The translations under genes were made by a program, and so were the position numbers. 27,235 bases of DNA from positions 1 through 27,235 of IMG/VR virus record IMGVR_UViG_3300042893_000406, one strand, 5' to 3'. How positions within the stretch are numbered: the stretch's first letter is position 1; the number at the start of each line of letters is the position of its first letter. Below, in pieces: positions 4,449-23,152 of the stretch. Source of the stretch: a virus. Its lineage: Duplodnaviria > Caudoviricetes. Under the pieces are notes generated by a model, which saw only the letters and a list, made by a program, of their open reading frames with translations, did no database searches and had not been told where the DNA came from.

Positions 4449-4677
4449 TTTTGCATTAATGCTCCAAGTGCTACATGTAAGAGGTTTTAGTTTGGCGGAC
4501 ATAGCTAGGAAAACTAATACTTCAATGAGTACATTGTCAACGGTAAAACAAGAATCTAAATGCCCACCAGCAGGATGGTTAGAAGCAATTAATCTTCTTG
4601 ATTATTGGCTTAAAGCAACTGGGGAAAACCCTCCGAGGGTTGGGGATCATATTAGTGTGGAGGTGGGGAATGAGTAA
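4432..4677 (+). CDS. Small HTH DNA-binding protein
   Basis: GFSLADIARKTNTSMSTLS HTH pattern; AGGAG RBS before ATG 4432. Confidence 0.65.
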   Translation: MERDIDFALMLQVLHVRGFSLADIARKTNTSMSTLSTVKQESKCPPAGWLEAINLLDYWLKATGENPPRVGDHISVEVGNE

Positions 4678-4993
4678 AGAAAGAGAGCTGTTGCAGAGAA
4701 TCTTAGACACAGACCCTAAATTTTTGGGTGGAAGATTTATAGCTGAAATACAAGAACTCCTCGCCCAACCTGAGCAGACTGAGCCTCTTTTAGCAGAAAC
4801 AAAGATTGAATGGTATGGGAAAGGGTTTAGACAAGGGGTCAATGAGTTTGCACCACCCAAACCCTTAACAGAAGATGTTATATATGCTCTTGATAAAGAA
4901 GGGATTGTTGAAAATATGGACGATCATCAAGTCAGATACGTCATTAGATGGATAAGAAGCGTAGAAAAAGCACATGGCATTGGAGGTGAATGA
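4670..4993 (+). CDS. Hypothetical phage protein
   Basis: GGAGGT RBS before ATG 4670 (MSKERELL); ends VEKAHGIGGE, a tail seen in many phage hypotheticals. Confidence 0.7.
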   Translation: MSKERELLQRILDTDPKFLGGRFIAEIQELLAQPEQTEPLLAETKIEWYGKGFRQGVNEFAPPKPLTEDVIYALDKEGIVENMDDHQVRYVIRWIRSVEKAHGIGGE

Positions 4994-5160
4994 TGATTAA
5001 AGTTAATACGCTTATAAAAAAACACAATAAAATTTTAGAATCTATGCAATTAAAAGATAATAAAAAATATATGACCGTAATGGATGAGCATAAAAATTAT
5101 TATATTATTGAAAAGCAAGCTTATATAAAAAGAATAAAATTAGAGGCAAGTAATGAGTAA
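4990..5160 (+). CDS. Small basic hypothetical protein, 56 aa (not in ORF track)
   Basis: GGAGGT RBS; MMIKVNTLIKKHNKILES...EASNE*; fills the gap and overlaps both neighbours. Confidence 0.6.
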   Translation: MMIKVNTLIKKHNKILESMQLKDNKKYMTVMDEHKNYYIIEKQAYIKRIKLEASNE

Positions 5161-6785: not shown

Positions 6786-6879
6786 CTTTAAATGCTATTA
6801 AACCAAAAGATGTGGCAACCCATATCGCTGCTCTCCAGCTTGAAGGTTCTTTTAAACGTGCTAAAAAAAAGTCTTTCAT
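6697..6879 (-). CDS. Small holin-like membrane protein
   Basis: RLKEPSSWR N-terminus with two hydrophobic segments; in the lysis module. Confidence 0.65.
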   Translation of the reverse strand: MKDFFLARLKEPSSWRAAIWVATSFGLIAFKGEQAEAIIALGMALSGACGIITPDKLHSK

Positions 6880-7232
6880 CAGCTTAAGTTCTTTAGTTTA
6901 TAAATAGTTGAAAGATAAAGATCAGTCACAGAATCCATTAAGTTTTCCAATGCTGGTAGACCTTTAGTGCATTTAGAGCGGTATTCATTTAGCCACATAA
7001 CTTCTTTAGCAAGATGAGTTGTAATATTGGCAGGAGATACTTGCTTAACATCAACAGCACCCATCAACCCAAAAGCACCTTGATAGGCTTCAACAAGATT
7101 ATCTACAAGATCAATTATTTGATTGTAGAACTTCTCCAATGCTTTATGCTCTGCATAAGATTTTGTACGCCAATGTTGTAGATGTGCCGCATTACGGCTT
7201 GCAAATGTTTTTGCTACTAATTGTTCAATCAT
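6879..7232 (-). CDS. Ferritin/Dps-like four-helix protein (DUF5856-like)
   Basis: HLQHW...AEHKAL..FY...D..VEAYQG and terminal YKLKNLS motifs; GAGG RBS before ATG 7232. Confidence 0.7.
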   Translation of the reverse strand: MIEQLVAKTFASRNAAHLQHWRTKSYAEHKALEKFYNQIIDLVDNLVEAYQGAFGLMGAVDVKQVSPANITTHLAKEVMWLNEYRSKCTKGLPALENLMDSVTDLYLSTIYKLKNLS

Positions 7233-7579
7233 AACCATACCTCGTTTGGTGCAACAGGCCACACTAAATCGCCTGCTGTGGGATAAACAGCAATTTGCCT
7301 TACTAAGTTACGGTAAGCAATAAACTCAGCTTGGTTAGCTAAATAAGGGCTGTTGATAGGGTCAGCAACATCAGCAATGGTTGTCCAATCTGTAGCCGTT
7401 AATAATACAGACGCAGTTGCTTTGTTTTGCTCTAATGTCGGCAAAATAGGTAAAGGCCAGTTGCCTGTAATATCTACCCACCCATTATTTATAGCTTGTT
7501 GAATATAAGGTGCTTGACTAGGGTCTGTTTCATCATATCCGTAAACTTGTAAATCTGTTAAATCTTGGTAATAAATCAT
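7229..7579 (-). CDS. Tail fibre assembly chaperone-like protein
   Basis: LLTATDWT...YRNLVRQI...WPVAP motif; follows the fibre gene; start moved to ATG 7579. Confidence 0.75.
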   Translation of the reverse strand: MIYYQDLTDLQVYGYDETDPSQAPYIQQAINNGWVDITGNWPLPILPTLEQNKATASVLLTATDWTTIADVADPINSPYLANQAEFIAYRNLVRQIAVYPTAGDLVWPVAPNEVWL

Positions 7580-20161: not shown

Positions 20162-20689
20162 TTAGCTTGTGAGAGCGACTAATTCGGTTGATGTGAGTGC
20201 TTTTGGATAGTAGGTGAGTTTCTTTATGTATGTATTACAATATCTTCCACCATTAGCAATACTATATCCTATAGATAATGTATTAAAAATACCAAGCTGT
20301 TTACCTTGAGTAATGGTAGCTGTAACTGGCGCAACGCCATTGACTGATATTTTTGTATCTAAAAGAGTTACGTTAAACGCAAGTTTGCCTTGTGTTGCTG
20401 TGGTATTGATATAGTAAATATCCCCAAAATTTCCAGCTCTATATGCTATTGTAGTAGCAGGTAAAGAGTTAGCAAATTCTTTGCCTACTTTTAAATACGC
20501 ATTACTAGAAGAAAATAATTCAAAAAGTTGTGGATAATCACCTTTGGCAGAATCAACATCTAAGTAAAAACTCCCTTGACTCTGATTATACCAAGAGCTA
20601 AAGTTAGTCGAAACCATTGACGCAGCATCAGCAGCACGAGTTATCGTGGTGGCAACTGTGGGTATATACGATGTTGCAAAGCTAGCCAT
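20162..20689 (-). CDS. C-terminal half of split fibre/adhesin (LamG/ConA-like beta domain)
   Basis: Starts M-ASFATSYIPT...TRAAD, the expected continuation of WGAQxE; AGGT RBS 7 nt before ATG 20689 (alternative ATG 20695); ends IKKLTYYPKALTSTELVALTS. Confidence 0.85.
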   Translation of the reverse strand: MASFATSYIPTVATTITRAADAASMVSTNFSSWYNQSQGSFYLDVDSAKGDYPQLFELFSSSNAYLKVGKEFANSLPATTIAYRAGNFGDIYYINTTATQGKLAFNVTLLDTKISVNGVAPVTATITQGKQLGIFNTLSIGYSIANGGRYCNTYIKKLTYYPKALTSTELVALTS

Positions 20690-21385
20690 ATTCATTACCT
20701 ATGTTATAATAAGAAAACTTTAGCTTCTTATTGAGATTATTATGAAAACATACGGAATCATTAACTGCCCCGATTGCAATATTGAGTTTACTAAACTTTC
20801 TCCAAATACTAAGCGATGCAAGCCTTGCGCCCTTTCTGCTCATGGTGAAACTAAGTCTGGGTATAAAATTAAAAATTGTATTGTTTGTGATTGTGACTAT
20901 AAGCCATCTGGTACCACACAAAAAGTTTGCGAGTCCTGTAAACCTGCTTATAGGCAACAACAAAATATAACCAAACTTAAAGAGATGAGGAAAAAAGCTG
21001 GTGCAATAGTTATTGGCACCGTTCTTATGTGTCCTGAATGTGCTGATGATTTTGTTTATAAAGCTGGGCCACAACATAGATGCCCAAGTTGCCAAAAACA
21101 AGCAGAAGTTAAAAAAATACATGAGTGGCTTGCTTCTGATAAAGATAGACTTAAAAAATACACAGAAAAAGCTAAAGATAATTATACCTTTGGAGGCAAT
21201 AGAAAAACAGCCCTTGAAAGAGACAATTACACATGTCAGCATTGCCAAACTAAAGACGACCTGCATGTCCACCATATTGACGGCAAAGGCACTACTACTG
21301 AAAGAGAACTCAGGAATAATGCTATTGACAATTTGATTACTCTTTGCAGAGGTTGCCATACTAGAGAACATGGTAGAATTCGTCA
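20690..21385 (+). mobile_element. HNH homing-endonuclease-like insertion (696 nt) splitting the fibre gene
   Basis: Lies exactly between the GAA (E) of WGAQAE and the ATG-GCT-AGC-TTT of MASF; flanks remain in the same frame. Confidence 0.8.
20702..20710 (+). promoter_or_regulatory. Extended -10 promoter for the HNH gene
   Basis: Perfect TGnTATAAT, 31 nt before ATG 20742. Confidence 0.6.
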
Positions 21386-21422
21386 TTCTGCTTGCGCTCC
21401 CCAGATAAATACACCGCTATAA
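20742..21422 (+). CDS. HNH endonuclease with N-terminal zinc ribbons
   Basis: Six N-terminal CxxC; LERDNYTCQHC...LHVHHID...N..DNLITLCRGCHTREH HNH domain. Confidence 0.92.
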   Translation: MKTYGIINCPDCNIEFTKLSPNTKRCKPCALSAHGETKSGYKIKNCIVCDCDYKPSGTTQKVCESCKPAYRQQQNITKLKEMRKKAGAIVIGTVLMCPECADDFVYKAGPQHRCPSCQKQAEVKKIHEWLASDKDRLKKYTEKAKDNYTFGGNRKTALERDNYTCQHCQTKDDLHVHHIDGKGTTTERELRNNAIDNLITLCRGCHTREHGRIRHSACAPQINTPL

Positions 21423-23152
21423 CCATTACCAACAACCGAGTTACTTGTGCCATTAGTTGAACTACCAAACTGAGTAACTAAACTTGTAGCTGTGTTACTT
21501 GTACCTGTGATATTGCATCTATACCAACCGTTACCAACTGATGTAGGTGTAGTTGCAGACAAAGCAGTAAACGCAGTTCCAATACCAGCAACAGCGGTAG
21601 AAATAGCACCAGTGGCCAGGTTGAAATAAACTATAGCACCATTACCAGCACCATCAGATATTTGTAACCATGAATATGTATATTGATTAGCTTTAAAGTG
21701 AACCGTTGATGTATAAGCTAAAGCTGATGCAGCTTTAGTAACTGTTTGCGCAATCGCTTGTAATCCGGTTGCTGTGTTGCTTACCAAGTTAAATGCAGTC
21801 TGCGTACCATCTGGTGCAATAGTCGCTGCCGCTGTTACTGTGCTATTAGTTAATGTCCAAATTAACGTAACTGTTCCACACGTAGCTGTAGCTCCGCTAG
21901 TGCTTCCTGTTAATGTTCCAGTAAAAGTTCCTGTACCATTATAAATAGCAGCAAGTGTAGCTGTTGATTTATCTAATAGGTATTCACCCGTCCCTCCACC
22001 AGAAGCAGTTACTGTTTCACCATTAACAAAAGTGCCAGAAACAGCAGATAACACAACAGTATGAGAAATAAATGATTGACTATAAGTAAAAAGATTAGTC
22101 CTCTGCTCCTCAATCAGTAACCCCAACGCCACCCCTGTTATCGGGTTATAGTCCAAGCGTGGCACACCAGCAGCAGCAGTCATTAATACTGGGATGTAGT
22201 TGGTAATAGGTGCGGTGGTAGTTGGAGTATAGGCGGTGACTGAGGAGCGTTGTTCGAGTTGTGCGCCCCAAGCGTATATTGTTTGAGCTACTTGAGCTGA
22301 TTGAGTTATATCTCTTAAATCCACGCCTAATTGAATATAATTTATGGATGCACCAGCAGTATGATTAAGGGTAAATCGTTGCCAAGATGTTGTTAATGTG
22401 CAAGTTGTTTTGACAGAAGTAGAACCATTTGGTGTCCACATCAAATATATAACTTCACCACCAACAGACCCTCTTAAATAAACTGAATCTGTGTAAATTA
22501 AAGTATTTATTTGAGTAGGGGCTTGAAATACAATTGAAAAAGCATTTACTCCTGTAACTGCTGGGTATGCAATTTGCGATGCAGTAGTTGTCCCATCAGG
22601 TGCAGTTGTAGCATTTCCTGTTACTACTGGAGCAGTTGCTGTTATGGCACTTTTAATCCAAACAGCGTTGCTGAAGTCTTGACTCTGCAACAACAAATTC
22701 TCCTCAGCCTTAGCAGTCGTCTTACCATCATAATAAGTCGCTGTGCTGTTTCTAACGAACGTAATGCGAGGGTCTACGGTTTTGCTGTTGGCAAAGTCTA
22801 GGTTGAGGGTTGGTTGGACAGTGGGGTATGCAGCAGGAGCGGCTAACACAGCCGTTGCCGCAGGATAGGTACAAAATACATTCTTAGTGCCAGCAGCAAA
22901 GGAAACAGCGGTTGTACCGCCTGCACTTGAAGTTAATATTTTATCAACAGTGATTGAATTGGCGGCAGAGGTATATGTACCTAAAATGTCCATCCAATTA
23001 GTGCCATTGGTAATGGTGTAATAAGTGCTATTTGTATTGCCAATTCCTACGCTAAATGTTTGGTATCCTGTAACGCCTCCGCCCAGAACAAATGGCCCAG
23101 AACCAGTTGAAGTTGAAACTTCTTGTACTCTATCATTTACTACTAGCGTCAT
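21383..23152 (-). CDS. N-terminal half of split fibre/adhesin
   Basis: MTLVVNDRVQE N-domain, PTLNLDFA...FVRNSTATY, GLLIEEQRTNL; two NLL...APDGT...WGAQxE repeats, the second ending abruptly at WGAQAE*. Confidence 0.87.
   Translation of the reverse strand: MTLVVNDRVQEVSTSTGSGPFVLGGGVTGYQTFSVGIGNTNSTYYTITNGTNWMDILGTYTSAANSITVDKILTSSAGGTTAVSFAAGTKNVFCTYPAATAVLAAPAAYPTVQPTLNLDFANSKTVDPRITFVRNSTATYYDGKTTAKAEENLLLQSQDFSNAVWIKSAITATAPVVTGNATTAPDGTTTASQIAYPAVTGVNAFSIVFQAPTQINTLIYTDSVYLRGSVGGEVIYLMWTPNGSTSVKTTCTLTTSWQRFTLNHTAGASINYIQLGVDLRDITQSAQVAQTIYAWGAQLEQRSSVTAYTPTTTAPITNYIPVLMTAAAGVPRLDYNPITGVALGLLIEEQRTNLFTYSQSFISHTVVLSAVSGTFVNGETVTASGGGTGEYLLDKSTATLAAIYNGTGTFTGTLTGSTSGATATCGTVTLIWTLTNSTVTAAATIAPDGTQTAFNLVSNTATGLQAIAQTVTKAASALAYTSTVHFKANQYTYSWLQISDGAGNGAIVYFNLATGAISTAVAGIGTAFTALSATTPTSVGNGWYRCNITGTSNTATSLVTQFGSSTNGTSNSVVGNGYSGVFIWGAQAE

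Follow-up and report, generated by a model that had tools for sequence, protein, structure and literature searches.

An open reverse frame across an inverted HNH gene in a split phage fibre gene, read as a probable translational relay

Free-standing HNH endonuclease genes that split a host gene have been described in mobE, which lies in nrdA of Aeh1, and in mobA, which lies in the topoisomerase gene 39/60 of T4 (PMC2988022). Coupling by termination and reinitiation is reported to need overlaps or very short gaps between genes and to fail across gaps of about 20 nt, and such overlaps are enriched among the subunits of complexes (PMC10666635). Given that limit, a gap of 693 nt between two mutually needed halves of a gene would uncouple them. 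Here we describe such a gap in a phage fragment of 27,235 nt, a single contig that we refer to as the window and that occurs in lake and freshwater metagenomes, with none of RNA among the 24 runs listed for it. An inverted HNH gene fills most of this gap, and its reverse strand is one uninterrupted reading frame.

The split fibre gene and its inverted HNH endonuclease

Profile matches to PHROG and Pfam identify scaffold, P22-type coat, adaptor, fibre, head-closure and ejection genes in a run on the − strand of the window, where many of the late genes are joined by −1 or −4 overlaps; the HNH gene at 20742-21422 (+) is one gene reversed relative to this run. Elsewhere in the window, between the tail-fibre and lysis genes, an ORF at 6879-7262 (−) matches phrog_858, a starvation-inducible regulator. 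The virion fibre gene is split into an N-half at 21383-23152 (−), whose 589 aa end WGAQAE-stop and match the tail protein family phrog_5939 over profile positions 435-583, and a C-half at 20162-20689 (−), whose 175 aa match positions 586-761 of the same profile and for which an alternative ATG lies at 20695. The last domain of the N-half matches the head spike fibre Rcc01080 of RcGTA (E 1.9e-16), which mediates capsule attachment (PMC7296036), and the C-half contains a LamG-like domain (PF13385, E 3e-4, below that family's cut-off).

Three intact alleles (L331-L333) read WGAQLE-QGSFATSY where the window reads WGAQAE-stop followed by MASFATSY, so that no residue is lost or repeated at the split point, WGAQxE/MASFATSY. 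The halves are colinear with these alleles and share a frame in the window, and the intact alleles are 95% identical in amino acids and 90.7% in nucleotides to the end of the N-half, over its last domain. Occupied and empty alleles of the site both exist, which makes the HNH gene an optional presence, and 11 of the 120 best homologues of the intact protein stop at the split. A structure model of the intact allele (mean pLDDT 86) places the break at the predicted end of strand 382-392, before a loop; a fold search with the intact protein matched phage baseplate, LamG and CBM folds no more than in part (best TM 0.31), which does not name the protein. The fibre genes are mosaics, with nine N-halves 94-96% identical to that of the window over the last 160 aa and 38-50% identical over the first 200 (window 21383-23152 and P0067-P0122). 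This pattern may bear, indirectly, on excess inheritance; the intact alleles carry the same module, so module shuffling would fit it as well.

The HNH gene encodes 226 aa with a Cys-pair N-terminal region and a PF01844 match above the cut-off (E 1.5e-6), belongs to phrog_1271, and runs antisense to the end of the N-half over its last 40 nt. Residues H177, H178, D180, N197, H206 and H210 are invariant among 45 HNH sequences, as are the Cys pairs; an HNH domain with intact catalytic residues beside a separate DNA-binding region makes the product a putative free-standing HNH homing endonuclease. There are 44 near full-length homologues at 42-89% identity, many of which end in a reverse reading of the host motif. 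After dropping L052 (HNH as in L221), L131, L252 and L254 (as L251), L132 (truncated, as L257) and repeated contigs, we counted 14 distinct family loci with DNA, the window included, and all 14 are inverted and sit at the same motif of the fibre gene, which indicates site specificity across diverged hosts. One of them, L256, is without its N-half. Ten of the 14 were taken as near-independent, with fourfold sites 19-50% identical, about six lineages and HNH proteins at 46-82% mutual identity. Since 10 of the 64 parts were read in the metagenome scan, and 23 of the 64 in one viral scan, more loci exist and the family numbers at least 14. The HNH had zero matches in 50,697 annotated phage records, and two scans of genome contigs found no family member, the first confirming none and the second giving four matches that lie neither in a fibre gene nor near an HNH relative.

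The insert is real DNA: contigs from two of four runs, both possibly the window's own source, span it unbroken with zero differences. Among contigs of eight DNA runs, which drop rare variants, there was no joint across the insert and no variant inside it, and no intrinsic terminator was found in 20500-21600 of the window. Between 20860 and 21080, the HNH alleles of the window and of L001 alternate between long stretches of identity and two strongly divergent patches, which suggests recombination between the two alleles; the reverse frame is open through both patches. L001 also carries, at 4550-5119, an extra co-oriented ORF of nuclease-like sequence directly upstream of its N-half, which is not at that place in the window.

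The reverse frame in the window and across the family

On the late strand the insert is read by a single ORF of 234 codons at 20682-21386 (−), here called the bridge, which is antisense to and exactly in phase with the HNH gene. It starts within the N-half stop, in an ATGA at 21383-21386 (−), 10 nt after a Shine-Dalgarno-like GGAG at 21397-21400 (−; duplex −7.6 kcal/mol, this and the other duplex energies being scored against an anti-Shine-Dalgarno motif). Its stop overlaps the C-half start (ATGGCTAG, 20682-20689, −), before which lies a weak AGGT at 20697-20700 (−; −3.8 kcal/mol). An earlier note on this DNA had described both the open frame and its coupled ends, and its codon counts also hold: the 11 Leu codons in the 215-codon overlap are 8 CTT, 1 CTG, 1 CTC and 1 TTG, the Ser codons are 5 TCT, 1 TCC and 1 AGT with zero TCA, and the first Leu beyond the overlap is CTA. 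TTA is indeed abundant elsewhere, with TTA and CTA together making up 59% of Leu codons, and TCA 27% of Ser codons, in 30 window genes. From the usage of those genes, the probability of finding zero TTA, CTA and TCA, the three codons that would close the reverse frame, is 5.6e-6; under a stricter null, which takes the HNH gene's own third-position use of A, it is 2.9e-3 for the window gene alone. The longest run free of these codons in the 30 genes is 129 codons, and the other two late-strand frames across the HNH gene contain 10 and 26 stops. The bridge contains C and G in equal number (128 each), and thus shows no clear Rho-loading bias. Its ATG is an HNH His codon read backwards, the GGAG is drawn from host Trp-Gly-Ala codons and the window's TAG from Met-Ala-Ser, so single signals of this kind can arise without selection.

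We then compared the reverse frame across the family, since the same note had proposed that relatives should keep it open with coupled ends while the encoded peptide drifts. This is the pattern in the 14 loci, four of which have one internal stop. That relatives might carry stops had been put forward as an argument against the idea; the relatives do not bear this objection out, with the qualification that these four each have their one stop. The bridge ATG lies at −4 from the end of the N-half stop in 12 of the 14 loci; the two others are L224, whose N-half stops with TAG (−8), and L130 (+11). In all 14 loci, the end of the terminal bridge stop falls between −12 and +8 nt relative to the C-half ATG, across differing spacers and frame relations, and among the near-independent loci the first stop past the HNH start falls inside that interval in 10 of 10 bridge frames versus 0 of 20 other frames. 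Both junctions thus have a stop overlap or a very short gap, the geometry of termination-reinitiation coupling.

The 10 near-independent HNH genes together contain two TTA, CTA or TCA codons, versus 41.8 expected from flank usage or 43.8 from an internal null, and with one locus per lineage there is one such codon in six genes. Within the family HNH genes, TCA accounts for 1 of 50 codons versus 93 of 391 for the other NCA codons (p 7e-5), TTA for 1 of 27 versus 207 of 439 (p 3e-6) and CTA for 0 of 99. Low counts extend to GTA (4 of 80 Val codons versus 15.6 expected) and ATA (10 of 68 Ile codons), although neither makes a reverse stop; part of the Leu signal may therefore come from a general avoidance of NTA, and the low GTA weakens the CTA signal and leaves the TCA signal intact. 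The relatives avoid the three codons beyond composition, as ambigrammatic genes do.

The bridge peptide itself drifts. Its identity among the 10 loci is 23-47%, versus 24-41% after synonymous shuffling of the HNH codons (mean z 1.0, with 10 of 45 pairs above 2, five of these being close pairs). The window and L001 differ at 37 codons; 34 of these differences alter a bridge residue and none creates a stop. No PHROG or Pfam family matched the bridge, and in the Atlas its peptide had no match at or above 0.9, the best (0.83-0.84) falling inside the shuffled range. The claim that selection keeps a dummy frame open thus draws support from the relatives' open frames, coupled ends and drifting peptides, and the effect on coupling and polarity attached to it is one that we infer.

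Where internal stops occur, L130 has one TGA mid-frame with only a TTG, 6 nt later, and the one TAA common to L251, L255 and L256 has an ATG or GTG 3 nt beyond it, with AGGT upstream, which would allow restart. Five loci have the bridge and the C-half in one frame, and all five retain an intervening stop, so fusion of the two seems to be disfavoured. The bridge frame differs from the N-half frame in all 13 loci with N-half DNA, the C-half takes different frames relative to the N-half from locus to locus, and seven of the 14 C-halves have a Shine-Dalgarno site of their own of −7 kcal/mol or stronger; such C-halves may need no coupling.

Upstream of the HNH gene, the window contains an extended −10 promoter-like motif, TGnTAnnnT, at 20702-20710 (+). 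Of the 14 family spacers, 13 carry this motif, 19-31 nt ahead of the HNH start, versus 1 of 103 background windows; a promoter scan by itself found 3, no more than chance would give (3.5 expected), and the candidate promoter is put forward to the extent of this conservation. The nTA of the motif forms a late-strand stop in 12 loci, outside the bridge frame in eight and in frame in four. Those four have a shorter spacer, a C-half ATG 1-4 nt further on and a weak or absent Shine-Dalgarno site (−0.3 to −3.1 kcal/mol), a pattern in which the C-half start tracks the bridge stop.

HNH genes in other orientations and settings

A search of viral DNA with the motif-plus-stop pattern returned 11 loci: eight known family contigs, L315, which was rejected as a chance match, and two others, L317 and L320. 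In these two, a different, sense-oriented HNH_3 gene (2018-2503 in L317) occupies the same site of the fibre gene. The same ATGA provides the start of its ORF, whose end is at +1 in L317 and −2 in L320 relative to the C-half ATG; with 6 and 7 antisense-stop codons, the gene has no open reverse frame. In either orientation of the nuclease gene, the gap is thus occupied by a coupled ORF on the late strand. With two unrelated nucleases in one split, one of them may have entered a gene that the other had already divided.

We next considered 189 control HNH genes, 148 after removal of near-duplicates. The idea of recoding would have been undermined by the same bias in HNH genes elsewhere, and the controls do not have this codon gap: zero TTA, CTA and TCA were found in 2 of 99 genes at GC below 0.42 (mean 4.7 per 100 codons) and in 1 of 13 at GC 0.50-0.58. 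Among distant HNH genes at 37-50% GC, with a simple ORF rule used to define neighbours and some of the genes being related, at most one stop in the best antisense frame was found in 6 of 13 inverted versus 2 of 31 co-oriented genes (p 0.005), a count in which L103, inverted by eye, was kept as co-oriented per the script; at 41% GC and above the same comparison gave 4 of 11 versus 1 of 12. Inspection of the 13 inverted cases identified four that are open and coupled at both ends (L057, L065, L071 and L082), the reverse frame of L057 using another phase, and several that are partly so; L275 and L247 are inverted and not bridged.

Several of these loci have further features. Three of the four reverse frames at L057:2229-2858, L065:2375-3103, L071:2180-2830 and L082:2081-2785 adjoin DNA methylase or ParB-like genes. 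In L070 (1318-2223), L082 (2081-2785), L150 (2102-2749) and L154, the peptide at one end of the reverse frame resembles the start or end of a neighbouring gene, as though a gene end and the coupling site belonging to it had been copied during insertion. L032:2707-3201, a co-oriented HNH fusion gene (39% GC), has zero TTA, CTA and TCA in 163 codons and is an exception to the orientation rule.

A relay for ribosomes, its rivals and its relation to known systems

We consider it likely that the reverse strand of the inverted HNH gene serves as a relay frame from the N-half stop to the C-half start, translated so that ribosomes cross the 0.7-kb insert and restart on the C-half. For a gene split with its reverse frame open, the ends of that frame set at both junctions, TTA, CTA and TCA lacking and the peptide drifting, the best reading is that the frame is selected for being translated and not for its product. 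Ribosomes would terminate on the N-half, reinitiate at the overlapping ATG, read the bridge and reinitiate again on the C-half, which would keep the two halves in step for reassembly as proteins. A long untranslated stretch of mRNA invites Rho-dependent polarity; the relay would leave no long ribosome-free stretch in the late mRNA and so spare the downstream tail genes. On the opposite strand, meanwhile, a dedicated promoter would drive transcription of the HNH gene, whose spread would occur through homing into intact alleles.

Translation of the frame might instead serve to cover the RNA, against decay, premature termination or antisense pairing with the HNH transcript, possibly damping HNH, with the C-half starting alone. 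The strong Shine-Dalgarno sites of half the C-halves fit such a role, as do internal stops tolerated where a restart codon comes next, and ambigrammatic narnaviruses are reported to need translation of their reverse frame, with RNA protection proposed as the reason (PMC8316113). Coverage, however, requires neither a bridge stop within 12 nt of the next start, which every locus has, nor a stop followed by an ATG without a Shine-Dalgarno site, as in four loci, and we regard it as unlikely. Sequence does not separate coupling from coverage: the end positions favour the former and the strong sites in 7 of 14 loci leave room for the latter. That the bridge encodes a functional protein, such as a membrane protein or a nuclease inhibitor, appears more doubtful still. 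Its start, Shine-Dalgarno-like motif and conserved length would suit a gene, as would one to four hydrophobic windows per locus and the slight excess of identity over shuffles, and antisense phage genes with real functions exist in olg1 and gene 10 of Fc02 (PMC9936078). Against this, the identity stays near shuffle expectation, nearly all window-L001 codon differences change the peptide, four loci are interrupted, the hydrophobicity is what the genetic code yields when Lys, Glu and Gln codons are read backwards, and the peptide has no family match, with other inverted HNH genes using unrelated peptides, even in another phase (L057).

The exact colinearity of the split with intact alleles, and the shared frame of the halves in the window, could also point to halves rejoined by splicing, ribosome hopping or frameshifting, with the open frame as a side effect. 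We give this little credence: there is no Rfam intron match, the frame of the C-half relative to the N-half differs between loci, every C-half has a new Met and many a new Shine-Dalgarno site, the stop between bridge and C-half is kept wherever the two share a frame, and the window has no matched in-frame landing codon across a gap of 693 nt, versus the 50 nt reported for T4 gene 60 (PMC5009743). Of the specific candidates, a group I or II intron was rejected because no intron family is among the Rfam matches up to E 5 in 20400-21700, where the sole match is a snoRNA family below its gathering score, and because the HNH gene fills the insert except for about 50 nt. An intein was rejected because the N-half ends in a stop and the bridge frame differs from it in 13 of 13 loci, and a bypass of the T4 gene 60 type because there is no in-frame GAA before the resume codon, the inserts measure 578-695 nt and the frame relation varies. 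Least credible, and already largely refuted, is a shadow ORF left open by chance through the codon bias of the HNH family. The low GTA and ATA, the 52-60% GC of nine of the 10 independent relatives, at which TTA, CTA and TCA are rarer, and the co-oriented control L032 would all be in keeping with it, but zero counts are rare among controls in both GC ranges, TCA is depleted against its sister NCA codons within the same genes, and codon bias does not place the ends of a frame.

Taken beyond this family, we lean towards the view that relay frames represent a general and so far undescribed solution, one that lets phage operons tolerate inverted selfish genes and takes its place beside splicing of RNA or protein and ribosome hopping. 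The element would be selected to keep its reverse strand translatable, and the ORF kept only for ribosomes to walk; the arrangement would have arisen more than once, in other HNH lineages, target genes and phase, and would fill the slot of a sense HNH gene one-for-one. If true, this would add to the ways in which selfish genes can reduce the damage they do to their host, provide a case in a bacterial system of selection on an ORF for translation alone, explain a class of long antisense ORFs that are annotated as hypothetical proteins or discarded, and offer a design rule for placing inverted cargo in operons without polarity. Natural controls exist in the intact alleles and in the sense-oriented HNH genes at the same site.

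In the full-text literature searched, which takes in a minority of subscription papers, we found no description of a coupled antisense relay across a homing endonuclease. Its individual elements have counterparts. Like mobE and mobA, the window holds an HNH gene within a coding region, without splicing and with two polypeptides that need reassembly, and T4 mobE likewise overlaps an upstream stop, which has been read as translational coupling; mobA and mobE, however, are described as promoter-less cassettes read from host transcripts (PMC2988022). In the window, by contrast, the HNH gene is inverted, has its own promoter-like motif and leaves the coupled slot to a product-indifferent reverse frame; the sense HNH_3 of L317 and L320 is the conventional form at the same site. 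The −4 and −1 overlaps and very short gaps recall known termination-reinitiation coupling, although the coupling described there links two functional genes, whereas the window interposes an apparently dispensable ORF as a spacer (PMC10666635). T4 gene 60 also offers a translation-level remedy for an insert linked to a homing endonuclease, but hops 50 nt between matched codons to yield one protein, as opposed to 693 nt, a variable frame and two proteins expected here (PMC5009743). Pseudomonas phage Fc02 carries opposite-strand overlapping ORFs in olg1 and gene 10, yet both products have exclusion activity, and the account as cited describes neither a mobile nuclease nor relay geometry (PMC9936078). 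Ambigrammatic narnaviruses keep a long reverse frame open behind a real gene, with translation rather than product proposed to matter; they differ, as far as the cited account goes, in being eukaryotic RNA viruses with a whole-segment frame, no neighbour-gene coupling and no mobile insert (PMC8316113). Collectively, gene-splitting free-standing HNH genes and reverse frames kept for translation are already known, whereas the proposed relay across an inverted HNH gene appears to be new and is well supported by the comparison of loci.
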